Virus record (IMG/VR): IMGVR_UViG_3300045988_112440
DNA from: a virus
DNA length: 64,000 nucleotides
Strand: one strand, 5' to 3'
The translations under genes and the position numbers were made by a program. Every line of letters starts with the position of its first letter. The stretch's first letter is position 1. The notes under the pieces are model-generated. The model saw only the letters and a list, made by a program, of their open reading frames with translations, had not been told where the DNA came from and did not search any database. Positions 31,247-57,735 of the stretch are shown in pieces.

Positions 31247-33460
31247 ATGAGAACGCTTTTGCTGTTCCGTGGAGCACCAGGTTGTGGGAAGTCCACCTAT
31301 ATTAAAGAGCATAATCTTGAACAGTACGTATTGAGTGCTGATACACTTCGCCTTATGTGCCAGAGCGCACAGGAAACACCTGCCGGGCAGATGGAGATTT
31401 CTCCGCAGAATGATGATGTTGTATGGGAGATGCTTTTCAAACTGCTTGAGGTGCGTATGAGTCATGGCGAGTTTACCGTGATTGATGCAACGAATTCCAA
31501 GACGGTCGAAATGAATCGTTATAAGAATCTGGCAAAACAGTATCGTTATCGGATGTATGTTATTGACATGACTGACCTTCCGATTGAGGAATGCAAACGA
31601 AGAAACGCTCAGAGAGAATGGCTGAAGCGAGTTCCTGAAGCGGCCATTGATAAGATGTACGCTCGGTTTGCTACTCAAAAAGTTCCTTCTGGCGTGACAG
31701 TTCTTCCTTCTACTACAGATGTGATGTCCGATTTGAATTACTGTCCGAATGACTTCAACCAGTGGAAGAAGATCCATGTCATCGGTGATGTTCATGGCTG
31801 TTATACTTGTTTAAGTGAATACCTTGGCGAGATGAAGGACGACGAACTTTATATTTTCGTTGGTGATTATCTCAATCGTGGCATCGAAAACGTTGAGGTA
31901 TTCAAGTTCTTGTGTGATGTTGTAAATAACAACCGCAAGAATGTGATCCTTTTGGAAGGGAATCACGAGCGTTGGCTGAACAAGTGGGGGCATGATGAAC
32001 CGGTTCAGAGTGAAGAGTTTGCAAACTACACTCGTCCGCAGCTTTTTAAAGCTGGTATTGATAAGAACACTGCTCGTAAGATCTATTCCAGAGTCGGCCA
32101 GTGTGCCTACTTTGAGTATGATGGTAAGCGGTATTTCGTGAGCCACGGTGGTTTGAGTTATCTGCCTTATTTTCTTCCTTTCGTATCTGCTGACCAGATG
32201 ATCAAAGGTGTAGGTCGCTATCCTGATATGCTAACCGTGGCTGAGTCTTGGGAAAAATCGATGCCTGATAGCTATATTCAGATATTCGGTCATCGAAATG
32301 TGCAGGATGTTCCTATTGATATGGGGCATCGGTGCTACAACCTCGAAGGAAAAATCGAGTTTGGTGGATATCTCCGTTGCGTGGAACTTGAACACGGTCA
32401 GCCCGTCAAGTGTGTAGAAACCAAGAATGATGTATTCCGAAAAGAGGAACCAAAGACCGAATCTGCCGTTGAAATGAAAACTGAGTTCGATAACGCAGAA
32501 CTTGTTAGTAAGATGCGTCAAAGCAAATATGTGTTTGAGAAGCGATTCGGAGATATTTCTTCTTTCAACTTCTCTCGTGAAGCATTTTATAAGAAGCATT
32601 GGGATGAGGTTTCTACCAAAGCAAGGGGATTGTTCATTAACACAAAGACGAATAAGATTGTAGCTCGAAGCTATGATAAGTTCTTTGCGGTTGATGAGCG
32701 GAATGAAACGAGAATTGGAAACCTACAGAACACTTTGAAGTTCCCGGTGACTGCGTATCTAAAAGAGAACGGATTTCTTGGTATCATTTCGTATGATGCA
32801 GAACAGGATGGCCTGTTCATTGCAAGTAAATCCACTCCTGAAGGGCCTTTTGCAGATATGTTCCGAAAGATTCTCATGGATACGACTTCTGATGAAGATC
32901 GTAAGAATCTGAAAGAAGTTGCAAAAGAGAATGGCTCCATCATCTTCGAGGTGATTGATCCTGTGAATGATGCTCATATCATTGAATACAAGAAACCACA
33001 CATTGTTTTGCTGGATATTATTGCGAATGATATGAACTTCAGTGTGATGGATTACGATGATCTGAAGCGTGTTGCTGAAAAGTGTCATTTGCAGATTAAG
33101 GAGAAGGTTAAGACTTTTGAGAACTGGAGTAAATTTTATCCTTGGTACGAGGAAGTCATGAACGAGAACTATCTGCATCATGGCTTTGAACACGTTGAAG
33201 GCTTTGTTTTGCGAGACAGCAACAATTTTATGTTTAAGATGAAGCTTCCTTATTATAAGCACTGGAAGTTCTTGCGTGGTGTCATGCAGAGTGTCCAGAA
33301 GCGTGGTTATTACGAAAACACTGCCAAGCTATTTACTGCTGAGGATAACCTGTTCTATGGTTGGATGCGTGAGCAACGAGAGAAAGACCAGGAGTCTTTT
33401 TGCAAGAAGGGTATTATTCAGCTGCGGAATGAGTTCTACGCAAGTCAGCAGAAGAGCTGA
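31247..33460 (+). CDS. trifunctional polynucleotide kinase / metallophosphatase / ligase (Pnkp-like RNA repair enzyme)
   Basis: ORF track. P-loop GAPGCGKST. Phosphoesterase motifs GDVHGC, GDYLNRG and GNHE. Ligase-type motifs KENG, EGFVLRD and FKMKL. Confidence 0.8.
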   Translation: MRTLLLFRGAPGCGKSTYIKEHNLEQYVLSADTLRLMCQSAQETPAGQMEISPQNDDVVWEMLFKLLEVRMSHGEFTVIDATNSKTVEMNRYKNLAKQYRYRMYVIDMTDLPIEECKRRNAQREWLKRVPEAAIDKMYARFATQKVPSGVTVLPSTTDVMSDLNYCPNDFNQWKKIHVIGDVHGCYTCLSEYLGEMKDDELYIFVGDYLNRGIENVEVFKFLCDVVNNNRKNVILLEGNHERWLNKWGHDEPVQSEEFANYTRPQLFKAGIDKNTARKIYSRVGQCAYFEYDGKRYFVSHGGLSYLPYFLPFVSADQMIKGVGRYPDMLTVAESWEKSMPDSYIQIFGHRNVQDVPIDMGHRCYNLEGKIEFGGYLRCVELEHGQPVKCVETKNDVFRKEEPKTESAVEMKTEFDNAELVSKMRQSKYVFEKRFGDISSFNFSREAFYKKHWDEVSTKARGLFINTKTNKIVARSYDKFFAVDERNETRIGNLQNTLKFPVTAYLKENGFLGIISYDAEQDGLFIASKSTPEGPFADMFRKILMDTTSDEDRKNLKEVAKENGSIIFEVIDPVNDAHIIEYKKPHIVLLDIIANDMNFSVMDYDDLKRVAEKCHLQIKEKVKTFENWSKFYPWYEEVMNENYLHHGFEHVEGFVLRDSNNFMFKMKLPYYKHWKFLRGVMQSVQKRGYYENTAKLFTAEDNLFYGWMREQREKDQESFCKKGIIQLRNEFYASQQKS

Positions 33461-33575: not shown

Positions 33576-33660
33576 GGGGATATGGTGAAATTGGCAGCCA
33601 CGCTTGATTCAAACTCAAGTGTCGAAAGACGTATCGGTTCAAATCCGATTATCCCTACCA
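33576..33660 (+). tRNA. tRNA-Leu(CAA): tRNA-Leu (anticodon CAA), type II, CCA encoded
   Basis: Hand-folded. Acceptor GGGGATA/TATCCCT. Anticodon stem CTTGA/TCAAG with loop TTCAAAC. Long variable arm. T arm ATCGG-TTCAAAT-CCGAT. Confidence 0.85.
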
Positions 33661-33857
33661 TGAAGATCAGTTGTTCTGGCTAGATCGGGGATTGGCCGTT
33701 CATTGGCAAACGACAGGTATCATACCGGTAAAGGATGCCGAGCCAAATAGGAAGGGGAATAAGGTGCAAGCCGAGTAGCTGTCGGACGAATACCCTTCAG
33801 GTAGCCAGTAAACCGGAATGTAAAACAAATGTTGGCTGTTTCTGATCTTCTATATAA
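33661..33857 (+). ncRNA. 197-nt structured spacer (unclassified candidate ncRNA)
   Basis: Nested helices: 33662-33670/33842-33850 (9 bp), 33676-33682/33802-33808 (7 bp), and two internal arms. Confidence 0.35.
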
Positions 33858-33940
33858 GCTACCGTGGTGGAATGGCAGACACCGGAGACTTAAAATCTCC
33901 TGTCGGAAACGACGTGCCCGTTCAAGTCGGGTCGGTAGCA
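33858..33940 (+). tRNA. tRNA-Leu(UAA): tRNA-Leu (anticodon UAA), type II
   Basis: Acceptor GCTACCG/CGGTAGC. Anticodon stem GGAGA/TCTCC with loop CTTAAAA. Long variable arm. No CCA encoded. Confidence 0.85.
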
Positions 33941-33947
33941 TTGATAT

Positions 33948-34023
33948 CCGGGTGTAGCTCAGTTGGAAGAGCGCGTGCTTTGGGAGCATGAGGCCGCAGG
34001 ATCGTGACCTGTCACTCGGACCA
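33948..34023 (+). tRNA. tRNA-Pro(UGG): tRNA-Pro (anticodon UGG)
   Basis: Acceptor CCGGGTG/CACTCGG (C1-G72). D arm GCTC..GAGC. Anticodon loop TTTGGGA. CCA encoded. Confidence 0.85.
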
Positions 34024-34056
34024 ACCCGAAAGGGCATGTAGAATTTTTCATTCACA

Positions 34057-34110
34057 TTATTCCCAGCTCTCTGGAAACGGAGCAGTGTGACGTAGTAAGC
34101 TGGGCATATG
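34057..34110 (+). ncRNA. covarying spacer element, copy a
   Basis: ATTATT CCCAGCT [CTCTG-GAAA-CGGAG] CAGTGTGACGTAGTA AGCTGGG. Confidence 0.5.
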
Positions 34111-34112
34111 CT

Positions 34113-34183
34113 GCGCCATCGCCAAGCGGTAAGGCAGAGGACTTTGACTCCTCCATCACAGGTTCGACCCCTGTTGGCGCAAT
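34113..34183 (+). tRNA. tRNA-Gln(UUG): tRNA-Gln (anticodon UUG)
   Basis: Acceptor TGCGCCA/TGGCGCA (U1-A72). Anticodon stem GAGGA/TCCTC with loop CTTTGAC. T arm ACAGG-TTCGACC-CCTGT. Confidence 0.8.
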
Positions 34184-34187
34184 TTAT

Positions 34188-34269
34188 GCGGATATGGTGG
34201 AATGGCAGACACGCCAGACTTAGGATCTGGTGCTTCGGCGTGTGGGTTCGATGCCCACTATCCGCACCA
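34188..34269 (+). tRNA. tRNA-Leu(UAG): tRNA-Leu (anticodon UAG), type II, CCA encoded
   Basis: Acceptor GCGGATA/TATCCGC. Anticodon stem CCAGA/TCTGG with loop CTTAGGA. Variable arm TGCTTCGGCGT. Confidence 0.85.
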
Positions 34270-34319
34270 CGATCATAGAATGGTTGCGTACCGTTTGTTG
34301 ATCTCCTTTGACTGCCACT

Positions 34320-34375
34320 ATTATTCCCAGCTCACCAGTGATGGTGCAGTAGTGCTTTGTAAGCTGGGTGATTAT
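34320..34375 (+). ncRNA. covarying spacer element, copy b
   Basis: ATTATT CCCAGCT [CACCA-GTGA-TGGTG] CAGTAGTGCTTTGTA AGCTGGG. Confidence 0.5.
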
Positions 34376-34450
34376 GCAGCGGTCGTACAATGGTTAGTAT
34401 ATCAGCCTTCCAAGCTGAGGATGAGGTTTCGACTACCTTTCGCTGCTCCA
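34376..34450 (+). tRNA. tRNA-Gly(UCC): tRNA-Gly (anticodon UCC)
   Basis: Acceptor GCAGCGG/TCGCTGC. Anticodon stem TCAGC/GCTGA with loop CTTCCAA. Discriminator U. CCA encoded. Confidence 0.85.
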
Positions 34451-34545
34451 ATCTCGTATGGGTAGGATTTTTAGCGGTCAAATCCGGCTGCGCCTGTGCG
34501 AGATACCACCCCGAAAGGGGAGAGATATAGGAAATGTGCATCACT

Positions 34546-34600
34546 GTTATTCCTTCCTCGTCTATATGATATAGATGCAATAGTGTTTATAAGGAAGGTT
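34546..34600 (+). ncRNA. covarying spacer element, copy c
   Basis: GTTATT CCTTCCT cg[TCTATA-TGA-TATAGA] TGCAATAGTGTTTATA AGGAAGG. A further hairpin TCCCAGT/ACTGGGA follows at 34600-34633. Confidence 0.45.
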
Positions 34601-34637
34601 CCCAGTTGAATAGTTGCAGCTGTTTGACTGGGAATAT

Positions 34638-34714
34638 GGGATAGTAGCTCAGTTGGTCAGAGCTGGCGGCTCATAACCGCTTGGTCGCGAGTTCAAATCT
34701 TGCCTGTCCCACCA
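34638..34714 (+). tRNA. tRNA-Met(CAU): tRNA with CAU anticodon (elongator Met or Ile2), CCA encoded
   Basis: Acceptor GGGATAG/CTGTCCC (G1-C72, so not initiator-like). Anticodon loop CTCATAA. T arm GCGAG-TTCAAAT-CTTGC. Confidence 0.8.
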
Positions 34715-45527: not shown

Positions 45528-46289
45528 ATGGTTTACATTACAGGCGATATTCATGGTGATTTTAATCGTTTTTTAGAATTGGAAAAGTTTTGCCATGAAC
45601 ACAATCTTGGAAAGAATGACTGGATTGTCTGCCTTGGCGATGTCGGTTTGAACTATTACGGCAAGGACGACCCTCGCGAATGGAGTATTAAGACTATCGC
45701 CGCAGATATTCCTGCAAATCTGTTTTGTATTTATGGCAACCACGAACGCCGCCCTTCTCGTAAGGATGGTTATAGGACAAAGGAAATCAGTGGAGATATT
45801 TGCGGCAAAGTGTGGCATGACCCACATTATCCCAATCAGTATTTCGCTATCGATGGCGAAGTTTACCAGATTCTTGCTGATAGGAAAATTCTGAACTGTC
45901 TTGTTTGTGGCGGAGCTTATTCCGTAGATAAATGTTATCGGTTGGAGCGTGGATGGAACTGGTGGCCGGATGAACAGCCTAATGAGAAGACTAAGAAAAA
46001 GATCTGGAATATTACACATGACCCTCAAATCGATGGTATTGATGTTATGCTCACGCATACTTGTCCATTCCGGTTCATTCCAACTGAATTGTTTATCGGT
46101 GGTATTGATCAAAGCACAGTAGACCAGTCAACTGAAATATTCTTTGATAATATATACGAATGTTATCCTAACGATTGTAAACCATTCTGGTACTTCGGCC
46201 ATTTCCATGGTAACAAGTACACCGATGACTATGTGATGCTTTTCGACGATATTATTAAGTTTGGAGATAAGGTGAAGAGTGATGGTTAA
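45528..46289 (+). CDS. calcineurin-like metallophosphoesterase
   Basis: ORF track. GDIHGD, GDVGLNYYG and GNHE motifs. Confidence 0.75.
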   Translation: MVYITGDIHGDFNRFLELEKFCHEHNLGKNDWIVCLGDVGLNYYGKDDPREWSIKTIAADIPANLFCIYGNHERRPSRKDGYRTKEISGDICGKVWHDPHYPNQYFAIDGEVYQILADRKILNCLVCGGAYSVDKCYRLERGWNWWPDEQPNEKTKKKIWNITHDPQIDGIDVMLTHTCPFRFIPTELFIGGIDQSTVDQSTEIFFDNIYECYPNDCKPFWYFGHFHGNKYTDDYVMLFDDIIKFGDKVKSDG

Positions 46290-46605
46290 AGATAAAAATT
46301 TACGAGTGCTTGATTATATTGATGGCAAGGAAATACTCATTCAGATGGGAGAGGAAGGTTCGGAACTGTCGAAAGCTGCGATAAAGTTTTATCGTGCAAT
46401 CGACATGAAGAACCCAACGCCCGTAAGCATTAACGAGGCTTATGAAAACCTCGTAGAAGAATTCGGGGATGTGCTGAACTGTATTTACGCATACTATGAT
46501 GATGACGAGGATTGCATCTTGGCGTTTACATCGAAAGCGAATGAGATTGCTAACGAGAAGCGCAAGCGCTGGATTAAGCGTCTGAAGGAACGCGACCAGC
46601 TTTAA
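46282..46605 (+). CDS. mazG: MazG-like nucleotide pyrophosphohydrolase
   Basis: ORF 46279-46605. EEGSELSKA...EEFGDVLNC EExxE/D pattern. Confidence 0.65.
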   Translation: MVKDKNLRVLDYIDGKEILIQMGEEGSELSKAAIKFYRAIDMKNPTPVSINEAYENLVEEFGDVLNCIYAYYDDDEDCILAFTSKANEIANEKRKRWIKRLKERDQL

Positions 46606-46622: not shown

Positions 46623-49600
46623 ATGTCAGATAATTTTGTAAATCTTCATGTACATACAGCGCAGGGTTCGTTACTTGACTCTATTCTTACCGTCAAGGAA
46701 CTTGTAGACTTTGCCAAAGAGAATGGTCAGAAGGCTATTGCTGTTACGGACCATGGCAAGATGCACTCTTTTGTTGACCAAGTTAAAGCTTGTAAAGCAG
46801 AAGGTATTAAGCCTATCATCGGCTGTGAAGTTTATGAAGTAGATAATCAGGCAGAGAAAGCTGACACAAAAGACTATAAACAACCTCGTTACCATCTTAT
46901 TTTACTAGCGAAGAACGAGACCGGTTTAAAAAATCTATTTAAGGTTGTTTCAAATGCTTGCGTTGATGGCATGTATAAAAAGCCTCGAACTTCTTTGAAC
47001 ATCATTGAACAAAACGGGTGGGGTAAAGGTATCATCTGTCTTACGGCCTGTCAAGTTGGTCGAATGAGTAGATTGCTTGTTGATGGAAACGAGACCGAGG
47101 CATGGCAGTTATGGAACAAACTGAAATGGATCTTTGATGACGTGTTTATGGAAGTTCAGTCTCATGATACGCCAGATCAGGCTGAAGCTAATGCCAAAAT
47201 TGCAGCTTTTATCAAAAAGTACAATCTTCCGTATACTATTACAACAGATGCTCATATGCTTTCCAAGGAAGATGTTGAGGCACATTCAGTTTTTGTAGAA
47301 ATTGGAGAAGGACGAGAAGTTGGAGAAAGTTATGTTGACTGTTATCTTCAGACCGAAGACGATGTGCTGAGAACACTTTCAAAGCAGTTTGATGAAGACT
47401 TCATCCGAGAAGGCTGCTCAATGTCTGTGAAAATTGCAGATATGGTTGACGATATTGATATTGGTCTTGGTCAGCCAAACCAGATGCCAGAAGTGAAAAT
47501 TGAAGGTAAATTTGATTCGCATCTGGATTACCTGTGCTACCTTGTTTATTCTACTTTCGATGAAAAATTCGGATGGATGAGTAAAGAAGAACAGCAAACC
47601 CGGCGAGACAGAATTGAGATGGAGCTTGACGTTTTGGAATATGTTGACTACATCGACTATTTCATCATGCTGTATATGCTTTGTAAGGTGGCTGATGAAC
47701 GAGGTATCCCTCGTGGCTATTCTCGTGGTTCTGGTGCAAACTGTCTATGTCTATTTATGCTAAACGTTACGCAGATTGATTCTGTTCGTTGGGATCTTGA
47801 CTTCTCTCGTTTTGCAAATAAGGGTCGTAAGAGTCTCGCGGACTTCGACTTTGATATTAGCCGTCGTCGTCGCAAAGAACTTGTTTCTATTGCAGAAGAG
47901 CTTTTTGGAAAAGAGAGTGTAGCACCAATCGCAACTTTTAATTCTCTGTCTACCAAGGTTGCCATTAAGGATATTGGCAAGGTACTGAACGAAGATCCAG
48001 AAAGCCCATATTATATGCAGATTCCGTATGAATTGCGAAATGAAGTTGCTAAGTTGATTCCGACCGTGAAAACATTGGATGATCTCGGAGAAGAAGTTGA
48101 GAAGGAAGTTCTATTGAAGGACATTCTTGGAAAGAGCGAGCAGCTTTCTAATGTATATGATAAGTTCCCTCTGTGGTTTAAGTACGTTATGCGGCTTGAA
48201 GGTTTACCGAAGAGTATGGGTCGCCATGCTGCAGGAACTTTGATTACACCTAAGCCTGTTATTGAATATTGCCCTCTCTGTATGGATAGAGAAGGCAATC
48301 AGATGTGTCAGCTTGAAATGCACAATGCTATGGATGACCTGTCTCTAGTTAAGATGGATTTTCTTGGTCTTGAAAATTTGGACACGATTGATGACACATT
48401 AAAGATGGCCCATCTTACTTGGAAAGATGTTGATATCAACCATCTTGATTTGAATGACAAGGCAGTCTATGACGCTGTTTATAAATCTGGACACACAATT
48501 GGTATTTTTCAGATGGAGTCTGCTGAAGCTCGAAAGATGTGTGTTGAAGCAAAATGTGACAACGCCGAGGATATCATTGTTGTGAATGCAGCAAACCGCC
48601 CTGGCACTAAGGATAGCTTCCCGACGTACTGTTCCAATAAGCTTCATCCAGAGACTATCAAACTACTTCATCCTGATATCAAACAGCTTTTTGCCAAGAC
48701 TCAGTACATTCTTCTTTATCAGGAACAGGCTCTGGCAGTATTTCGTTATGCAGGATTCCCTGAAACTGAGGTTGACAATGCTCGTCGTGCCATTGGTAAG
48801 AAAAAGAAAGATGTTATGGCATCCTTGGAGGTCCAGTTTAGAGATGGTCTTCACAAGAAAGGATGGAACGATTATCAGATTTCTGAGATGTGGGCATTGA
48901 TCTTGAAACAGGCTTCTTATTCCTTCAACCGGGGCCACGCAGTTGCTTATGGGCTTCTTTCTTACCTGACAGCATACCTGAAGACTCATTATACTGAGTA
49001 TTTCATGGCTGCGTGTATGATTACTAAAGAAGATGATTCTGGCAAAATGGGTGTGTTTATCAATGAATGTGACCGGCTACATATTCGGGTTCTTCCTCCA
49101 AGTGTTAACAAGTCTGATATGGAATTTAAGGCCGATGCGGAGAAACACACAATTCTGTTTGGTTTGAAAGCCATTAAGGGAATGGGTGAGAGTGTCGCAG
49201 CAGGAGTGATTGCAGACCGTCCATATTCTGGATTGGCAGACTTTGTTCAGAGAGCAAACGGTGGCAAGATTGGCACTTCAAACGTTGTCAAGTTGATTAA
49301 GGCGGGAGCTATTCCAACAAAGGACAAGAGAAAAATCTTAATCACTTTTGCAAATATGGTTTTTGAGAACGAGTATAAAGAGAAGGGTTTTCATGAGATG
49401 GCATCTCTTCCCAAAATCTCTGTTCTTAAAGACGAATATGGGATTGACACAAATTATATTAAAGATAAGCCTACTAGACTTGCTTTATATAATAAGGCAA
49501 GAAGGGTGCGCTGGGAGGCAGATACAGAGAACCGCAAAAAGGAAAAAGACAAGAGACGAAAAGATTTCATGCAAGCGTTTGCCGAGAAATATATGCAAGA

Positions 49601-49967
49601 CGAGCACATGTGGGAATTTGAAACCCTTTCAATGTTCTTGACTAGCAATCCCATTAAGGATGCTTGTACCTATATTGATGCTGGTCTTGATACTGTAGAG
49701 GATGGCGGTAAGGCAACTGCTATTTGTGTCATCGTAGACATCCAAAAAAAGAAGGATAAACGTGGTAACCAGTTTGCATACTTACATGTTTATACGACAT
49801 GTGGTATTGTTGAAATGATTTGTTGGGCATCTCAGTATGCACGATATTCAAGTCTGATTTCAAAGGGCAGCGATCTTGCAATCCTTTGCAAGAGAAAAGA
49901 AAATTCGTACATTGTTGAGAAGATGAAGCCTTATAAGCAGTGGCTGCAAGATAGAGAGATAGCGTAA
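46623..49967 (+). CDS. dnaE: DNA polymerase III alpha subunit (DnaE-type, PHP domain)
   Basis: ORF track, 1114 aa uninterrupted. FVNLHVHTAQGSLLDS PHP motif, then FDFDIS, GRHAAG and NRPG. Confidence 0.9.
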   Translation: MSDNFVNLHVHTAQGSLLDSILTVKELVDFAKENGQKAIAVTDHGKMHSFVDQVKACKAEGIKPIIGCEVYEVDNQAEKADTKDYKQPRYHLILLAKNETGLKNLFKVVSNACVDGMYKKPRTSLNIIEQNGWGKGIICLTACQVGRMSRLLVDGNETEAWQLWNKLKWIFDDVFMEVQSHDTPDQAEANAKIAAFIKKYNLPYTITTDAHMLSKEDVEAHSVFVEIGEGREVGESYVDCYLQTEDDVLRTLSKQFDEDFIREGCSMSVKIADMVDDIDIGLGQPNQMPEVKIEGKFDSHLDYLCYLVYSTFDEKFGWMSKEEQQTRRDRIEMELDVLEYVDYIDYFIMLYMLCKVADERGIPRGYSRGSGANCLCLFMLNVTQIDSVRWDLDFSRFANKGRKSLADFDFDISRRRRKELVSIAEELFGKESVAPIATFNSLSTKVAIKDIGKVLNEDPESPYYMQIPYELRNEVAKLIPTVKTLDDLGEEVEKEVLLKDILGKSEQLSNVYDKFPLWFKYVMRLEGLPKSMGRHAAGTLITPKPVIEYCPLCMDREGNQMCQLEMHNAMDDLSLVKMDFLGLENLDTIDDTLKMAHLTWKDVDINHLDLNDKAVYDAVYKSGHTIGIFQMESAEARKMCVEAKCDNAEDIIVVNAANRPGTKDSFPTYCSNKLHPETIKLLHPDIKQLFAKTQYILLYQEQALAVFRYAGFPETEVDNARRAIGKKKKDVMASLEVQFRDGLHKKGWNDYQISEMWALILKQASYSFNRGHAVAYGLLSYLTAYLKTHYTEYFMAACMITKEDDSGKMGVFINECDRLHIRVLPPSVNKSDMEFKADAEKHTILFGLKAIKGMGESVAAGVIADRPYSGLADFVQRANGGKIGTSNVVKLIKAGAIPTKDKRKILITFANMVFENEYKEKGFHEMASLPKISVLKDEYGIDTNYIKDKPTRLALYNKARRVRWEADTENRKKEKDKRRKDFMQAFAEKYMQDEHMWEFETLSMFLTSNPIKDACTYIDAGLDTVEDGGKATAICVIVDIQKKKDKRGNQFAYLHVYTTCGIVEMICWASQYARYSSLISKGSDLAILCKRKENSYIVEKMKPYKQWLQDREIA

Positions 49968-49979
49968 GAGGGTTGTAAA

Positions 49980-52310
49980 GTGGCAGATAAGAAATTTAAT
50001 GAAAATATGATTCGTTGCTACATCAGGATAAAACGAGTCTTTTATCCGAAAGATGGGAGGGAAGTGGAGCCCGGCGGCTTCGCCACTTTCTCTGCCGAGG
50101 TGGTAAAAGTCAAGCAGGGACATCCTATCATGAGCCGATACAGCGACCTCCGGCTAAAAGGCAACGTTCCTAGCCTCGATATGAATAAAACTTATTCGTT
50201 CTGTGGTGAATATGTTCATCATGAAAAGTTTGGTGATCAGTATAAAATTATCTACATGAATGAGTTTCAAGAGATTACTGACCCGGAAGAACAAAAAAGC
50301 TTTCTCCGTTTTATCTTGACCGACCATCAGTTTGAGATGCTTTATGAAGCATTCAAGAATCCGTATGAAATCATCAAGAACGGTGATGTCAAGTCTCTTT
50401 GTACTGTTAGCGGCATTACGGAAGGTCGAGCACAAAAGATTATTGACTCCTTTGAAAACAACATTGATAACAGTGAAGCGTACACAAAACTGATTGAGTA
50501 CGGTTTGACTCCCAGTGCTATTGAAAAGCTTGTTCGTCAGTATCACGGTGCAGACATTCTGGTAAAAAAGATTGAAGAGAATCCTTACGTCTTGATTGAT
50601 GATGTGTATGGCATCGGCTGGAAAAAAGCTGACGCTCTTGCTTTAAATATGGGCTTAAAGCACAATTCGCAATTCAGAATCGAAGCCTACGTCATGCATT
50701 TTCTTGCCGCTCGTGCCGAAGAAGGTAACTCTATTATCTCGGCAAACCAGACAATCAATAGCTGTATTAAGGAACTTGATTTGAACGAGGGTGATCAAGA
50801 AGTTATCAAAATGGCACTTTTCCATCTGCATGATGTCCGTGAAACGCTTTGGTGGAGTGATGACCGTCAGGAATTTGCTTTAACTAGAGTGTGAAATCTG
50901 GAAGATAGTATTGCGAATGAAATCAAGCGTCTGGCGGATGCTCCTGTTGATCCGATTGGTCAAAATATGGATGCAGCAATCAATGAGGCCGAAAATGCGC
51001 TTGGCATCGAGTATACCGAAGAACAGAGAGATGCCATTAAAAAGGTATGCTCTAGCAACGTCTGTATTTTAACAGGCTACGGCGGAACTGGCAAAAGTAC
51101 CGTTGTCGCTGGTGTCTTAAAAGTTCTTCGTGGTAAGTCTTTTGCACAGACTGCACTCTCTGGCCGTGCTGCCGCTCGTATGCAGGAGATTACTGGTCAG
51201 GATGGAAAGACGATTCATCGTCTCCTTGGATATGACATCGAGAACGGTGGGTTTGTTCACGATAAGGACAATCCTCTGGATGAGGACATCATCATTCTGG
51301 ATGAGACCTCCATGGTTGGTGCTCAATTGTTTTACGATTTGATTCAGGCAATCGAAACCGGCAAGCGATTCATCATGATTGGTGATGACGGTCAGCTTGA
51401 GAGTATCGGTATGTGTAACATCTTCAAGGATATGCTTGCATCTAAGGTTGTTCCTGTGGCTCGTTTGACTAAGATCCATCGTCAGGCAGCCAAGTCTGCA
51501 ATTATCACGGAGAGCATTAAGGTTCGTAACGCTACGCAATTGGTGCCTTATGGCTGGGCTGGCAATGAGATTCGTGGTGAACTTCGTGATTTGGAGCTTG
51601 ATATCTATAAAGACGCAAGTGAGTCATTCAACCACATTATCAATCAGTACCGTACCTTATATAATAAGGTAGGGAATGATAGTGCGAAGATTCAGATTGT
51701 GCTTCCACAGAAGCTGCGTGGTAGTATCTGTACCTATGAAGTCAATAATGCTATTCAGGAAATTGTGAATCCGAGTCGTGGTCAAGCAGAAGCAAAGGTC
51801 ACAATCTATGGTGATGGCAAGGATAGAGCGTACACTCTGCGTGAGGGTGATCAGGTCATTATCAACAAGAACAACTATGAGCTTCACACATACAATCTCA
51901 AGACAAAGAAAAAAGAAGAGAAGTGTCCGGTGTTCAACGGAAACCGTGGCATTATCCGAAAGATTGAGAATAGTTTTATCCTGGTTGATTTTGACCAGTG
52001 GGGAACGATCTTCATTCCACATTACTTTGGTGGGAATAACGTCTGGGCAACACTTGAACTTGCTTATGCTTTAAGTTGTCATAAGTTGCAGGGCAGTGAG
52101 GCTCCGTATGTGATTGTTGGCATGGACAACTCTGCGTACCTGATGCTGACGAGAGAATGGCTCTATACGGCCATCACTCGTGCCAAGAAGTATTGTGTGA
52201 TTTGCGCCGAAACTCATGCTCTTGATCGGGCTGTAAAGACTTCGAGAGTTCCATATAAGCGGACGTTCTTGAAGGAATTTTTACGGAAAGAATTTTCAGA
52301 AAAGCATTGA
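49980..52310 (+). CDS. RecD2-like SF1 helicase with one in-frame TGA (50892-50894)
   Basis: Track ORFs 49980-50894 and 50967-52310 share a frame. 24 sense codons bridge them and ATG 50967 has no SD. Walker A GYGGTGKST, Walker B IIILDETSM. Confidence 0.7.
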
Positions 52311-52343
52311 CAATCATATTGGTGTCCTGTATAATGTAGCTAT
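52307..52343 (+). promoter_or_regulatory. consensus sigma-70 promoter carrying a forward-type motif copy
   Basis: TTGACA (52307-52312, overlaps the helicase stop), 17 bp spacer, TATAAT (52330-52335). Motif GTGTCCTGTATAATGTAGCTAT at 52322-52343. Confidence 0.7.
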
Positions 52344-52381
52344 AAGAAGTCTCTATCCCAGAGGCTTAAAATTCTCTCTTT

Positions 52382-52401
52382 AACTATATAATACAGGATA
52401 C
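52382..52401 (+). promoter_or_regulatory. ACAGGATAC-core motif, reverse-type copy
   Basis: AACTATATAATACAGGATAC. Centre is 58 bp from the 52322-52343 copy. Confidence 0.6.
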
Positions 52402-52404
52402 GGG

Positions 52405-52441
52405 AAAGAAATGGCTTGCTCGTAACGACAAGCCTTTCTTT
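52405..52441 (+). terminator. strong ~17-bp hairpin (attenuator/terminator or processing site)
   Basis: AAAGAAA.GGCTTG.TCG-taa-CGA.CAAGCC.TTTCTTT with two bulges. The 3' arm is T-rich but no free U-tract follows. Confidence 0.45.
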
Positions 52442-52450
52442 ATTGGCTAT

Positions 52451-52470
52451 AACTATATAATACAGGATAC
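52451..52470 (+). promoter_or_regulatory. ACAGGATAC-core motif, reverse-type copy
   Basis: Same 20-mer as 52382-52401, 69 bp downstream. Ends 13 nt before ATG 52484. Confidence 0.6.
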
Positions 52471-52483
52471 GCAAGGAGGCTTT

Positions 52484-53815
52484 ATGACAGATAAAGAGCT
52501 CATAGGTAAGCTTGATGCGATGGTTAAGGCATTGCAGAAAGCAAAGAAGAAGACGGACAAAACCCGCATTTTGCTGGATGCACGAAAGGATTTTGGCGAC
52601 GAAGATAATGAGCTGATGTTTTTCTTCAGATTTTTGCTTGACCCAGCAATTGTGACTGGACTGTCTGACGCAAAGATCAACAAGAAGGTGGCGGCAAAGC
52701 CTGATTTGGATTTTGAGCATTACAGTTGTGGATGTCTTTATCTAATGGGTAAAGGTCACAACACTGGCTCTGATGCATCCATCGCAACAATCCAAAATTA
52801 CTTACATAAAAACCATGAGTACGAAGAGTTCCTGAAGCGACTGTTCACTAAGAACCTGCCGATTGGAGTTGAAGCAGCTACCATCAATAAGGTGTACGGC
52901 GAAGAGATTATTCCTGTCTGGGAGGTTCAGCAGGGATATCCGATTGACAAGGTAAAGCTGAAAGATGGTATTTGGTTTAGTTTGAGCCAGAAGATGAATG
53001 GCAACCGGGGCACTATGCATAGAGGTGAAATTATTTCTCGTCAAGCACAGAAGTTTAAGGGACTCGACCATATAAAGAATGACCTGCTTTCTCTATACGA
53101 TGGAGACGCCTCCAGGCGAGATGCGTGGGTGTTTGATGGCGAACTTATCTATAAGAATCCAGAAGGAATGTCAGATGGAGAGGCTTTTCGTTATGGCACT
53201 GGCCTACTTAATTCTGACAACAAGGACAAGGCAGGAATCAAATTTGTGATTTTTGATGTGATTCCTGTTGTAGAGTTCGACCGTGGAAAGTGTACTATCC
53301 CATATAAAATTCGCCGTATTTGGTTAAATTGTCTTCGTGCAGAGATTACTCGCAAGCACCTTGAAAATATTGAGATTGTTCCCATGGTCTATGAAGGAAA
53401 AGACCAAAGCGTGATTCCAAAGTGGCTTGATTATGCTGTCGAGCACGATTGGGAAGGTCTTATGTTGAACACGGACGTCCCTTATCGCCGGGCTCGTCAC
53501 AACGGATGTCTCAAAATAAAGCGATTCTACACTGTTGATCTACGAATCACAGCGATTGAGGAAGGTCAGAACCGTCTGGCTGGTACGATGGGCGCTCTTG
53601 TTGTTGACTACAAGGGCAACGAGCTTCGTGTCGGATCTGGTTTTGATGATGTTACGAGAGTTGCTGTGTGGGCGAATCCAGATGACTACATTGGCAAAAT
53701 TGTTGAGTGTAAATACAAAGAGGTCACGATGGACAAAAAGACTGGCCTTGAGTCTCTGCAGTTCCCGACGTTTGTACGATTCCGAAACGACAAGAACGAA
53801 GTGAGTTACGGATAA
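52484..53815 (+). CDS. ATP-dependent DNA ligase
   Basis: ORF track. SD AAGGAGG. Adenylation motif SQKMNGNRG (KxxG), then EGLMLN and LKIK. Confidence 0.75.
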   Translation: MTDKELIGKLDAMVKALQKAKKKTDKTRILLDARKDFGDEDNELMFFFRFLLDPAIVTGLSDAKINKKVAAKPDLDFEHYSCGCLYLMGKGHNTGSDASIATIQNYLHKNHEYEEFLKRLFTKNLPIGVEAATINKVYGEEIIPVWEVQQGYPIDKVKLKDGIWFSLSQKMNGNRGTMHRGEIISRQAQKFKGLDHIKNDLLSLYDGDASRRDAWVFDGELIYKNPEGMSDGEAFRYGTGLLNSDNKDKAGIKFVIFDVIPVVEFDRGKCTIPYKIRRIWLNCLRAEITRKHLENIEIVPMVYEGKDQSVIPKWLDYAVEHDWEGLMLNTDVPYRRARHNGCLKIKRFYTVDLRITAIEEGQNRLAGTMGALVVDYKGNELRVGSGFDDVTRVAVWANPDDYIGKIVECKYKEVTMDKKTGLESLQFPTFVRFRNDKNEVSYG

Positions 53816-53825
53816 GGAGAAGGTT

Positions 53826-54098
53826 ATGAATCTTTCCAAGAAGTCCATTAAACACATTCTTCGGATTCTTGACAATAAATGTATCGAAGTTCCTACAAAG
53901 ACATCCGCTTATAACAGTAGTGGATGTAGAATTTTGACTCGTGATTTTGAGCCAAAGAAGTCACACGGAACGAATGGTTGGCAACGAATCGTCTATGTAC
54001 CGTCCGAAGGATATTTCTACGGAATTTATAACGGAAAATCGGAAGAAGATTGGGATATTTCAGATATCTGGTCTCCTGCCCAGCTTTCTGATTTGTGA
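53826..54098 (+). CDS. hypothetical protein
   Basis: ORF track. SD TAAGGAGAAGG. Confidence 0.7.
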   Translation: MNLSKKSIKHILRILDNKCIEVPTKTSAYNSSGCRILTRDFEPKKSHGTNGWQRIVYVPSEGYFYGIYNGKSEEDWDISDIWSPAQLSDL

Positions 54099-54106
54099 GG
54101 TTTACA

Positions 54107-54331
54107 ATGTTTGTTTTAACACAGAATCAAACCGGAGTTGCTGATACCAGTAAATGTTTTGGAATCCATATTGTAGATGAATCAACAGTAATCAGAGCGT
54201 ATACATTTGATGGAGATGGATGGATGAAACTTGGTAAATATAAAACAGTAGAACGAGCAAAAGAAGTAATTCAAGAAATTAACACTGCTCTTTGTGAGAA
54301 CCGTGTTAGTTTCGATATGCCGGAGGACTAA
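54107..54331 (+). CDS. hypothetical protein, tandem paralogue A
   Basis: ORF 54095-54331, trimmed to ATG 54107 after GTGAGG. Ends ...SFDMPED. Confidence 0.65.
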   Translation: MFVLTQNQTGVADTSKCFGIHIVDESTVIRAYTFDGDGWMKLGKYKTVERAKEVIQEINTALCENRVSFDMPED

Positions 54332-54332
54332 A

Positions 54333-54548
54333 ATGCTACTTTTAACGCAGGGCGGAGAAATTATAAATCTTGAACGCATGGCGATCATTGATGCCGCAAG
54401 CCTTAATGTTTACGCACGACAAGGCATGGGTGAACGTGGAATTATTCTTGGTAGTTATAATTCTGAGAGCAGATGCTACAATGTTATTGCAGAAATTTAT
54501 GACGAATATGCACATGGACAGGATGTGTATTCTATGCCGAAGGATTAA
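54333..54548 (+). CDS. hypothetical protein, tandem paralogue B
   Basis: Frame of ORF 54294-54548. ATG 54333 follows GGAGGA. Ends ...YSMPKD. Confidence 0.65.
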   Translation: MLLLTQGGEIINLERMAIIDAASLNVYARQGMGERGIILGSYNSESRCYNVIAEIYDEYAHGQDVYSMPKD

Positions 54549-54550
54549 CT

Positions 54551-54790
54551 ATGAACGACTTCCGAAAACTAGCCATTCCAAAGAAAGAACGACTTGAAGT
54601 TCAACTTACGGATGGCACAGAAAAACACAATATATTGTACATAATTACATCTCTAGCCACTATTAAAGGTGCTGAGATTTTTAAAAATTTTCGTTTGTAT
54701 TCTGTAGGCTCCGCCGGGGAGCTCAACTTACTAGAGAAGCAAGACGGCGATCCCTACTTTGATAAGCTGAAAGGAACAGAATATGAGTAA
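54551..54790 (+). CDS. hypothetical protein
   Basis: ORF track. SD GAAGGA. Confidence 0.65.
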   Translation: MNDFRKLAIPKKERLEVQLTDGTEKHNILYIITSLATIKGAEIFKNFRLYSVGSAGELNLLEKQDGDPYFDKLKGTEYE

Positions 54791-55130
54791 TTCGATGAAT
54801 CGAGAAGACCGGCGCAGAGAGCAGCGTAAGGCACGAATCCTTGCCCGGCGAATCAAAAAGGCCGGTGGTCCCGACTTTCTGGCTGGAATGCCGGTTGAAG
54901 AGTGGGAGCCAAAGATTGGTGATGAGGTTACTATTAAGGTAAAGAGGATTCAGGGCAAGAAGGACTTCTTTAAGATGAGTCCTCAGTATCAGGACTTTAT
55001 CAATAGCCTTGAGGATGGAAAGCCTTACAAGATTACCAGTACCGGTATGAAGGGTCAGGTTTACGGCATTGACGCACATCCTTATTTCCAGATTTGGAAG
55101 GGTGATATGGAACCCTACAAGGAGCCCTAA
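54783..55130 (+). CDS. hypothetical protein (Arg-rich N-terminus)
   Basis: ORF track. SD AAAGGAA. Confidence 0.65.
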   Translation: MSNSMNREDRRREQRKARILARRIKKAGGPDFLAGMPVEEWEPKIGDEVTIKVKRIQGKKDFFKMSPQYQDFINSLEDGKPYKITSTGMKGQVYGIDAHPYFQIWKGDMEPYKEP

Positions 55131-55381
55131 TGAGGATGTACTTCAGAACGGACTATTACAGTTATGTTGCTACAATAGATACTTTTGTTCAACTTAAAAA
55201 GGGTAACGCATACGAAGTGTTCGCAGATTTGGATGAATATTACATTATTATGATGGATGGTATGCCATTTGAAAAAGAACTAGGCATCGTAGTTGTGATT
55301 CCCAAAGAAGACCTTGAAGATGATGTATATGTCGTGACTGGTAAGAGCGAAAAACTTGAGGAAGGAGGTGGGACGATATGA
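55130..55381 (+). CDS. hypothetical protein
   Basis: ORF track. SD AAGGAG. TAATG overlap. Confidence 0.65.
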   Translation: MRMYFRTDYYSYVATIDTFVQLKKGNAYEVFADLDEYYIIMMDGMPFEKELGIVVVIPKEDLEDDVYVVTGKSEKLEEGGGTI

Positions 55382-55581
55382 TTGGTATTGACCATCGTGA
55401 ACAGGGACGTAAAGAACGAGCCCTTGCAGAATATTATAGAACCTTGGCTCGATATCCGACTGAATGTGGAGAGCCGATTACATATCAGTTGTCAGAAGAG
55501 CAGCTTAAACAGATTCTCTGTGGAGAGATTACTGTTGATGAATTGATTGAAAGAGGTGAGGTAAATGAGAGACAGGATTAA
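55378..55581 (+). CDS. hypothetical protein
   Basis: ORF track. SD GAAGGAGGTG. Confidence 0.7.
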   Translation: MIGIDHREQGRKERALAEYYRTLARYPTECGEPITYQLSEEQLKQILCGEITVDELIERGEVNERQD

Positions 55582-55729
55582 GATGTGGATCGCCTTCATT
55601 AAGATTTTTAAGGATTATCTTATTGCGGCCGGAATCATGATTGCGTTGTGGTTGCTGTCTTGCCTTATCAAATATGAGATTTCAGTATCCAGTTTTCCAG
55701 ATTGGTTTAAGTTTGCACTTCTAAAATAA
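55565..55729 (+). CDS. small membrane protein (54 aa)
   Basis: Below the track cutoff. ATG 55565 follows GAGGTGAGG. WIAFIKIF...AAGIMIALWLLSCLI. Confidence 0.5.
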   Translation: MRDRIKMWIAFIKIFKDYLIAAGIMIALWLLSCLIKYEISVSSFPDWFKFALLK

Positions 55730-55740
55730 AGGAGGATTAA

Positions 55741-55965
55741 ATGGTAACAGATATTCTTAATAGAGAGATTCATGTTGGCGACACGGTACTTAGAGCTAGA
55801 ACTCGAAATGGTCGCGGAGTTCTTTGGAGTATTCATAAAGTTATCTCCATTATGAACGTAATGATTAAGATTCAAGACGGAAAGTACACAACGAATGTTG
55901 CACCCAGGAATTGTATCGTAATTGACGAGAGTGACATTCCTGAAAACTGGCAGGACGAATATTAA
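55741..55965 (+). CDS. hypothetical protein
   Basis: ORF track. SD AAAGGAGGA. Confidence 0.7.
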   Translation: MVTDILNREIHVGDTVLRARTRNGRGVLWSIHKVISIMNVMIKIQDGKYTTNVAPRNCIVIDESDIPENWQDEY

Positions 55966-55975
55966 GGAGAGTTGA

Positions 55976-56692
55976 ATGACTGTTGATTTGATCGCATACA
56001 CACAGCGAGTTGTTCCTACAAGTGATAAGAACCCTTTAGATATTGTGGAGGAAGCTGCGAGTATTTGTTATGATTCTTCAATGACTGACGACTACAAAAT
56101 TGCCAAGGGATGTAAAGCCAGTGGTCACTATTCTGTGCTTGAACACATCAACTTTACGTTCTACGTCAAAGATGTAAGTCGAGCACTTCTGGCACAGATT
56201 AGTCGTCATCGACATATTAGCATGAGCTGCCGCAGCCAGCGTTATTGCAGCGAGGATGGATTCAAGTATGTGAACCCGTTTACCGGTGAAGATGCTGATG
56301 TTTTCGATAATATGATGTCGGACATTGATACCGATTATCAGATCCTCAAGAAGTATCACAACGCCAAAAACGAAGACGCCCGTGCAGTTCTGCCAAATGC
56401 TTGCTGTACAGAGTTTTACATTACGATGAACGCTCGTGCTTTGATTGAGATGAGTCATCTTCGACTTTGCTCCAGGGCTCAAAAAGAAATCCGCGAGATG
56501 TTTACAGAAATGAAGAATGAAGTTGCACAGGTTTGCCCTGAAGTAGCAAACTGGATGGTTCCTTCCTGCGAGGCTAATCCGAAGTATCCGTTCTGCCCAG
56601 AGGGTCGTGGTTGCTGTGGTCGTCACCCGAAGCTGGCAGATGTTTATAAGCCTATTGAAAAGAACAAGGAGGTTATTGATGGAAACACTTGA
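55976..56692 (+). CDS. thyX: FAD-dependent thymidylate synthase ThyX
   Basis: ORF track. ThyX signature ISRHRHIS (RHRxxS), plus HYSVLEH. Confidence 0.85.
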   Translation: MTVDLIAYTQRVVPTSDKNPLDIVEEAASICYDSSMTDDYKIAKGCKASGHYSVLEHINFTFYVKDVSRALLAQISRHRHISMSCRSQRYCSEDGFKYVNPFTGEDADVFDNMMSDIDTDYQILKKYHNAKNEDARAVLPNACCTEFYITMNARALIEMSHLRLCSRAQKEIREMFTEMKNEVAQVCPEVANWMVPSCEANPKYPFCPEGRGCCGRHPKLADVYKPIEKNKEVIDGNT

Positions 56693-57164
56693 CAAAATTA
56701 AGAAGAACGTCGATCATCCGTCTCATTACGGCGGTGCAGACAATCCCTATGAGGCCATCAAAGTGCTACGGGAGTGGCGGTTAGACAAGGATGCTTATCT
56801 TTGGAATGTTGGTAAGTATCTAAGCCGGGCAGGTCACAAAGATGGTAATTCTCAGCTTCAAGATTTGACGAAGGCACGTTGGTATTTGGACTATAAAATC
56901 CGGCTTTTAGAGGAACAACAGAAGATTGCTGAAAGTGTCGTAGATATGCTAAAGAAGATTCCTGATAAGGCTAATGATAAGCTGACTACGATGCCAAAGA
57001 AGGACATTAACGATTATTTTTATGATCCAAATCTCGGCGGTGTCTGCCATGATTTGGTTTATCGTCCTGATGATTCATTTAAAGAAAAACTGGCAAAAGC
57101 AGAGCCGATGTGCAACATCGAGACTGCCGTGGTTCCTGATTGCGCCGATGAGGTCAAGTTTTAA
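56679..57164 (+). CDS. DUF3310-like phage protein
   Basis: ORF 56607-57164, trimmed to ATG 56679 after AAGGAGG. HPSHYGG...NPYEAIKV pattern. Confidence 0.6.
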   Translation: METLDKIKKNVDHPSHYGGADNPYEAIKVLREWRLDKDAYLWNVGKYLSRAGHKDGNSQLQDLTKARWYLDYKIRLLEEQQKIAESVVDMLKKIPDKANDKLTTMPKKDINDYFYDPNLGGVCHDLVYRPDDSFKEKLAKAEPMCNIETAVVPDCADEVKF

Positions 57165-57177
57165 GAGGTTTACATAA

Positions 57178-57735
57178 ATGAGATACAACTGGAAGTTACC
57201 TATTATCGTTATTTGTGTCGTGCTGATTTCCATTCTTGGTATGACCTTTATGGTGCAGGGGCCTAAGAACACGGCCATCTCTTATGAAGAGCAGATTCAG
57301 GAAGCTAAGTCTGGCATTGAGATTCAGGAGAAGCGCAGAGCTGATCTGATTCCAAATTTGGTTGAAACCGTCAAGGCTTATGACCAACATGAGTATCAGA
57401 CTTTGATGGATGTTGTGAATGCTCGTGGCGCTTCCGGCCAGACCGCTCAAGAGATCACGACTCAGATTGCAGCTATTGCAGAAGCATATCCTGAACTGAA
57501 GTCTAGCGACAACTACAAGGAGCTTATGAATGAGCTATCCGTCACTGAAAATTTGATTGCAAACTATCGTGGCGATTACAATCGTGTCGTGAAGGAATAT
57601 AAGCAGAGCGTTCGTAAGTTTCCGAACTCCTTTCTGCTGGGTCTGACTGGATATGAGGTTCAGAATTATGAGTATCTGTCCTATGAGGGGAATGAGGCAG
57701 CACCGGCAGTCGGCAACCTTTTTGGAAATCGGTAA
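57178..57735 (+). CDS. lemA: LemA-family membrane protein
   Basis: ORF track. N-terminal TM segment, then EEQIQEAKSGIEIQEKRRADLIPNLVETVK...YPELKS typical of LemA. Confidence 0.75.
   Translation: MRYNWKLPIIVICVVLISILGMTFMVQGPKNTAISYEEQIQEAKSGIEIQEKRRADLIPNLVETVKAYDQHEYQTLMDVVNARGASGQTAQEITTQIAAIAEAYPELKSSDNYKELMNELSVTENLIANYRGDYNRVVKEYKQSVRKFPNSFLLGLTGYEVQNYEYLSYEGNEAAPAVGNLFGNR

Follow-up and report, generated by a model that had tools for sequence, protein, structure and literature searches.

The 64,000-nucleotide stretch of viral DNA analysed here (IMG/VR record IMGVR_UViG_3300045988_112440), hereafter the window, carries a helicase gene that gene calling divides into two open reading frames separated by a TGA. 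The locus raises the question of whether this TGA is real and, if so, whether it separates two genes, is read through or recoded, or simply breaks one gene. A sequence-only reading had offered four unranked explanations: programmed UGA read-through by tRNA-Trp, local recoding, a recent TGG-to-TGA nonsense mutation and a base-call error.

One gene interrupted by a single TGA

The window reads ACT AGA GTG TGA AAT CTG at 50883-50900, followed by GAA, and the in-frame TGA occupies 50892-50894. A 304-aa ORF (49980-50894, GTG start) and a 447-aa ORF (50967-52310) lie in the identical frame, with only this TGA and 24 sense codons, NLEDSIANEIKRLADAPVDPIGQN, between them. Both parts matched the same family models. 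On NCBIfam TIGR01448 (RecD2), the N part covered profile positions 27-243 and the C part 303-711; on PHROG 4412, the corresponding ranges were 5-275 and 316-741. Because the pieces are colinear on single family models, the two ORFs are one interrupted gene and not chance same-frame neighbours. The region 49980-52310 is one gene, interrupted once. The sequence-only reading had described a helicase split by a single in-frame TGA, followed by 24 stop-free codons and with the helicase motifs downstream, and the sequence bears out all three statements: GYGGTGKST (Walker A) and IIILDETSM (Walker B region) are both 3' of the TGA. The gene is laid out as follows.

49980..52310, + strand: complete gene of the recD2-like SF1B helicase, with a GTG start, 776 codons and its own terminator TGA (52308-52310); broken at codon 305
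49967..49972, + strand: Shine-Dalgarno-like (SD) AGAGGG, 7 nt 5' of the helicase GTG, anti-SD duplex energy -6.3 kcal/mol
49980..50891, + strand: codons 1-304, N-terminal region (OB fold and helix-hairpin-helix), Pfam PF23139, PF14520 and PF14490
50892..50894, + strand: in-frame TGA, codon 305; all close relatives read TGG (Trp) and two outgroups CGA (Arg)
50895..50966, + strand: codons 306-328, most of helix 302-320 (E308, I311, R317) and the next loop
50967..52310, + strand: 447-aa called ORF, helicase motor core (domains 1A, 2A and SH3-like 2B); its ATG is the internal Met329, without an SD

Identity of the helicase

The Pfam matches followed the RecD2 architecture, a long OB/HhH N-terminal region and then an SF1B motor with an SH3-like 2B domain. 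OB_YrrC (PF23139), HHH_5 (PF14520) and HHH_RecD2 (PF14490) were assigned to the N part, and AAA_30 (PF13604), AAA_19 (PF13245), SH3_13 (PF18335) and UvrD_C_2 (PF13538) to the C part. With W placed at position 305, the protein scored 488.8 bits on TIGR01448 in a single stretch (profile positions 27-711 of 713), narrowly missing the equivalog cut-off of 500 bits that NCBIfam curates for the whole protein. As the score is just below this cut-off, RecD2-like is the safe name. The ATPase motifs Walker A (GxGKS/T) and Walker B (DE) are present, and residues G369, G371, K372, D441 and E442 are invariant in the alignments.

D. radiodurans RecD2 (3E1S) was the best sequence match among solved structures, and the 776-aa protein with a residue set at codon 305 aligned to it in one stretch (E = 1.4e-39). 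The AlphaFold model of an intact, 96%-identical relative (P0001) had a pLDDT of 86.5. Its top Foldseek matches were 3GPL, 3GP8 and 3E1S, with E values of 6e-39 to 1e-35 and target-normalised TM-scores of 0.79-0.84. According to this model, the intact relative is predicted to have the fold of D. radiodurans RecD2. The domain order (OB_YrrC, HhH, AAA_30/AAA_19, SH3-like 2B, UvrD_C_2) is shared with the RecD2 SF1B helicases, namely D. radiodurans RecD2 (PDB 3E1S/3GP8/3GPL) and B. subtilis RecD2/YrrC. Unlike the D. radiodurans enzyme, the helicase in the window is phage-encoded, only ~24% identical to it, and broken at codon 305.

Phage, prophage state and host

The window covers the part of a large phage genome that serves replication and nucleotide metabolism. 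The gene for DNA polymerase III alpha lies directly upstream of the helicase, and the other neighbours encode a RecJ-like DHH protein, a metallophosphatase, an ATP-dependent DNA ligase and an anaerobic ribonucleotide reductase. Two further features are referred to below.

46623-49967: DNA polymerase III alpha
33576-34714: tRNA cluster (Leu-CAA, Leu-TAA, Pro-TGG, Gln-TTG, Leu-TAG, Gly-TCC, Met-CAT)

Related contigs (L110-L113) run ~9.5 kb beyond the right end of the window to a Tn916-type Xis and a tyrosine integrase. Beyond the integrase lies an ABC-transporter gene with 100% identity to its Faecalibacterium duncaniae/prausnitzii counterpart, and the GC content rises from 0.34 to 0.545 at the junction (~19 kb in L111). 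The Xis and integrase genes, followed by a host ABC-transporter gene and a jump in GC, show the element to be an integrated prophage of Faecalibacterium, ~135 kb long and low in GC (41%); the host is thus assigned from the flanks of related integrated copies. The gap of ~15 points in GC between phage and host is striking.

Gene content around the helicase varies. One relative (L002, 92% identical) lacks DNA polymerase III alpha 5' of the helicase and has small genes instead, and in another (L114) the gene 5' of the helicase matches Pfam Tad3. By its gene content, the region around 46623-49967 is apparently mosaic. Elsewhere in the window, 31247-33460 encodes a 737-aa fusion of a kinase-like AAA_33 domain, a metallophosphatase and a T4-type RNA ligase 1 domain, which recalls RNA-repair enzymes and stands directly upstream of the cluster of seven tRNAs.

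Cultured phages were distant. A blastn search of the helicase gene against GenBank phages gave no match. The nearest cultured phages by helicase were the Thomasclavelia phages TR-TP1 and TR-TP2 (36% identity), and by DNA polymerase III alpha, Clostridium phage Amboise (47%), which has no recD2-like gene beside its polymerase. An exact-pattern scan of genome contigs returned 0 matches, and a protein scan of them found only distant Paraglaciecola and Bacteroidales helicases.

Codon 305 in relatives

A search of a large protein collection led to a cluster of 2046 members with P0001 as its representative, which is intact and 776 aa long. Intact 776-aa relatives were found at 96-100% identity, and many more intact homologues down to ~42%. 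In the protein alignment, the column of the stop held W in every sequence at 95-100% identity. Further out it held R (54-82% identity) and beyond that V, I, H or Y, with L in D. radiodurans RecD2. The sequence-only reading had guessed Trp at the TGA from an RVY motif of RecD2 proteins. For the close clade the guess was correct, in the protein and as TGG in the DNA. The motif itself was only loosely right: Y does occur among the distant residues, but the closest clade has W and the next clades R, and Y shares the column with V, I, H and L beyond them.

At the DNA level, the pattern TTTGCTTTAACTAGAGTGTGRAATCT was present with TGG in 99 contigs (77 IMG/VR stretches, 20 metagenome contigs, L002 and L003). 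With TGA it was present only in L081 and L082, both 100% identical to the window. A protein-guided search gave TGG in all 80 of the IMG/VR loci retrieved, a set that overlaps with the 99 pattern-matched contigs. An intact 2331-nt ORF was found in 52 of the 53 full-length relatives, all of them with TGG; the remaining one (L065, IMG/VR) has a 1-nt deletion.

The nearest TGG relatives are almost indistinguishable from the window. L109 (Logan ERR13324839; 99.96% identical) differs from it at 2 of 4455 nt, at 47535 and at 50894, where it has TGG. L003 shows three differences over the first 1613 nt of the gene, two of them synonymous and the third TGG for TGA. Base 50894 is A in the window and G in the TGG relatives elsewhere. 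Between the window and the 52 intact relatives, dN/dS was 0.06 for the N part, 5' of the stop, and 0.05 for the C part. These values show past strong purifying selection on a gene that is otherwise intact.

The occurrence of TGG across the relatives indicates that TGG is ancestral for the clade and that the window TGA is a very young G-to-A change at 50894. The outgroups L114 and L115 (82% and 67% protein identity) have CGA (Arg) at codon 305. TGA is one step from CGA and one from TGG, which places the window allele on one of the two shortest routes from CGA to TGG. As the TGA is nested inside the TGG clade, this position is probably a coincidence.

What we found is a derived premature stop set against intact orthologues (52 of 53 intact; TGG in L109 and L003), the pattern that characterises a nonsense allele. 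The TGA is most probably a recent, lineage-specific nonsense mutation, a G-to-A change at 50894 that converted Trp305 from TGG to TGA in a recD2-like gene of a Faecalibacterium prophage. The nonsense mutation, one of the four options of the sequence-only reading, is the one that TGG in the relatives, including L109 and L003, supports.

Authenticity of the base at 50894

The same change could be an artefact, with G as the true base at 50894 and the gene intact. All fetched relatives have G at this site, as an error would predict. The exact 304-aa and 447-aa products are also on record from the ENA MEGAHIT contig k119_272246 (ERZ27250450, 165,172 bp) and from a Logan contig of run ERR636352. Both copies match the window at 100% identity, the ENA contig over 8.9 kb and the Logan contig over 7.3 kb. 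The same 304-aa sequence, with V listed as the first residue (P0123), is encoded on a JGI contig of 137,545 bp. Since different pipelines (ENA, Logan and JGI) all call A, an assembler artefact is unlikely. The three TGA assemblies are, however, identical to the window (100% over 7-9 kb), and may all come from one sample or read set. An error is further disfavoured by the nature of the change, a substitution and not a homopolymer indel, and by the lack of any other coding-strand gene with an in-frame stop relative to its relatives in 40-61 kb, which argues that the assembly is not generally error-prone. Taken together, we consider a sequencing or assembly error unlikely.

The contig L083, from the unrelated Logan run SRR35948386, corresponds to window 48848-50893, is identical over these 2046 nt and ends one base before 50894. 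It ends as a de Bruijn graph bubble at a SNP does, and this hints that both alleles co-occur in the SRR35948386 sample; the observation is only suggestive.

The internal ATG and the 447-aa ORF

If the stop is real, the two ORFs could form a functional split gene, in which the N fragment and a separately initiated 447-aa motor core work jointly or apart. The TGA interrupts the gene where the N-terminal region gives way to the motor core, and the core with all its ATPase motifs is intact 3' of the stop. In the literature, the RecD2 N-terminal region has been proposed to bind DNA, and D. radiodurans RecD2 retains activity in vitro when its first 150 residues are missing (PMC12143592).

Initiation at ATG 50967 finds no such support in the sequence. 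The sequence-only reading had noted that this ATG has no SD, and the calculation agrees: its anti-SD duplex energy of -2.7 kcal/mol is at the level of internal ATGs (median -2.45) and weaker than that of 45 of the 59 gene starts. Between the TGA and 50967 there is no other ATG, GTG or TTG from which the core could start.

The segment between the stop and the ATG is also part of the conserved protein. Both alignments, with members down to ~43% identity, show E308, I311 and R317 without variation. In the AlphaFold model of P0001, residue 305 lies inside helix 302-320 (pLDDT ~95), and Met329 just before the next helix. On this model, a restart at ATG 50967 would delete most of the conserved helix, including the three invariant residues. 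A two-gene arrangement at this point was found in no relative. These findings make a split gene highly unlikely, and the 447-aa ORF is best read as a gene-caller artefact that begins at an internal Met, and not as a natural product.

Recoding and read-through

A change of the genetic code (TGA = Trp, as in code 4), stop recoding by the phage or selenocysteine insertion would each make the TGA a sense codon, and TGA does stand here where relatives have Trp. The rest of the region behaves otherwise. TGA terminates many ORFs of the window, among them the helicase gene itself (52308-52310). We screened 40-61 kb of the window for in-frame stops by comparison with ORFs of at least 120 aa from ~100 related loci. 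The codon at 50892 was the only broadly supported coding-strand stop (69 loci). Four other coding-strand sites had the support of a single locus each and lay at or near ORF boundaries. One of these four, 46273, proved to be simply the stop that precedes ORF 46279-46605.

A suppressor tRNA with anticodon UCA was found neither among the seven tRNAs of the window nor in six fetched loci, which comprise L081 and L109 (window-equivalent) and L110-L113 (relatives, extending ~10 kb beyond the right end). An Rfam search of 50700-51200 gave no family at E <= 1, and the RNA fold of 50880-51000 was no better than that of shuffled sequences (z = 0.55). For selenocysteine, no SECIS-like hairpin follows the UGA, by Rfam match at E <= 1 or as a stable hairpin, and the relatives have Trp or Arg at the site, not Cys.

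The many in-frame TGA codons and the loss of TGA as terminator that mark code 4 organisms or recoded phages were not found: over 40-61 kb there is a single well-supported in-frame TGA against the relatives, and the relatives use TGG. The host flank belongs to Faecalibacterium. Faecalibacterium uses the standard code. The reading as a code change, recoding or selenocysteine is effectively refuted, and the local recoding put forward by the sequence-only reading is left unsupported, with TGA a regular terminator and no suppressor tRNA in the window. The likeness to stop-codon-recoded phages and code-4 organisms is limited to a TGA at a Trp position; here the site is single, TGA is otherwise a terminator and no suppressor tRNA was found. 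As far as the DNA comparison goes, TGG is shown to be the ancestral codon, TGA a rare allele at this position and TGA a normal stop in this genome.

The site might also be programmed or selected for UGA read-through, a leaky stop being kept so that much N-terminal fragment and a little full-length helicase are made. UGA is the leakiest stop, its reading as Trp gives the wild-type residue here, and the downstream frame is fully open and conserved. Against this, the stop is absent from all fetched relatives: TGA is confined to copies identical to the window and is not conserved as a programmed stop would be. The site likewise has no specific context or structure, with no stimulatory fold (z = 0.55) and no Rfam element. 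Because its flanks are identical in the TGG strains, no signal has co-evolved with the stop. We regard programmed read-through, which the sequence-only reading had attributed to tRNA-Trp, as very improbable indeed. A +1 frameshift at GUG UGA A was considered as well and rejected, since the +1 frame enters a 53-aa ORF (50911-51072) and not the helicase.

Other disrupted variants of the helicase gene

The nonsense allele is not the only disrupted form of this gene. L109, in which codon 305 is TGG, jumps from window position 51434 to 57371 with an overlap of ~11 nt. The corresponding 5.9-kb deletion (window 51435-57370) removes the C-terminal half of the helicase, the DNA ligase and several small genes. 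The jump may reflect a true deletion in this strain or a chimera in the contig.

Seven database products (P0124, P0126, P0127, P0131, P0132, P0134 and P0135) are helicases ending at ~215-221 aa and 363 aa, and some of the contigs that encode them are 54-137 kb long. The break points adjoin A-runs, at window ~50619-50632 (GGCTGGAAAAAAGC) and ~51036-51044 (ATTAAAAAGG). These truncated products and the L065 deletion stem either from frameshift alleles that recur or from sequencing errors in homopolymers. In a related integrated copy, L112 (ERZ28754993 contig_2223), the helicase is shortened to 509 aa, NrdD to 369 aa and the dUTPase to 105 aa; either this prophage has decayed or its long-read assembly is rich in errors. 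In view of the L109 deletion and the several frameshifted products, the helicase gene appears dispensable in some strains.

Predicted consequences of the probable nonsense allele

On the preferred reading, a recent nonsense mutation, translation would mostly end at codon 304 and release an OB/HhH N-terminal fragment, the product expected from 49980..50891 if ribosomes stop at the TGA. Full-length helicase would arise only where tRNA-Trp, as a near-cognate, decodes the UGA at its basal rate; this would restore the wild-type residue and yield no more than a few per cent. Read-through of catA86-TGA is 6% in wild-type B. subtilis (PMC7918605), and in E. coli Trp is the residue mainly inserted at TGA (PMC11126739). 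As UGA is leaky and read mostly as Trp, a small amount of exactly wild-type helicase is plausible. The allele may persist because the prophage is copied by its host and the accessory helicase would not be strictly needed. Against the nonsense reading, the strong purifying selection in relatives argues that a null allele should be costly for a lytic cycle.

The TGA could also be a tolerated or even useful leaky-stop hypomorph, in which near-cognate tRNA-Trp restores a little of the exact wild-type helicase and the OB/HhH fragment is present in excess. By analogy with the reporters, the site shares with basal UGA-as-Trp read-through (~6% for B. subtilis catA86-TGA; TGA reporters in E. coli) a UGA at which near-cognate tRNA-Trp gives the wild-type residue. 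Such read-through is a general property of the ribosome, and the window site carries no sign of enhancement or selection; nothing suggests that low-level read-through is selected here. We hold the hypomorph to be very unlikely. If it were true, the allele could also serve as an example of a viable passage through a stop codon, from CGA by way of TGA to TGG.

The ordinary nonsense allele has its closest parallel in the nonsense-mutated (pseudo)genes of prophages. It shares with them a single derived premature stop in an integrated element, with the gene intact in nearly all relatives, and the presence of frameshifted or deleted versions of the gene in other strains. It differs in being so recent that no secondary decay is seen, the nearest TGG strain showing one other base change in 4.4 kb.

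The interruption is an ordinary nonsense mutation and points to no new biology. Its main consequence is for annotation, which should join the CDS at 49980-50894 to that at 50967-52310, mark the result as a single recD2-like gene containing an internal stop, and refrain from passing on the 447-aa 'protein' as a real product. At best, the locus offers a clean, natural and very young nonsense allele in a gut prophage, suited to measuring basal UGA-to-Trp read-through.
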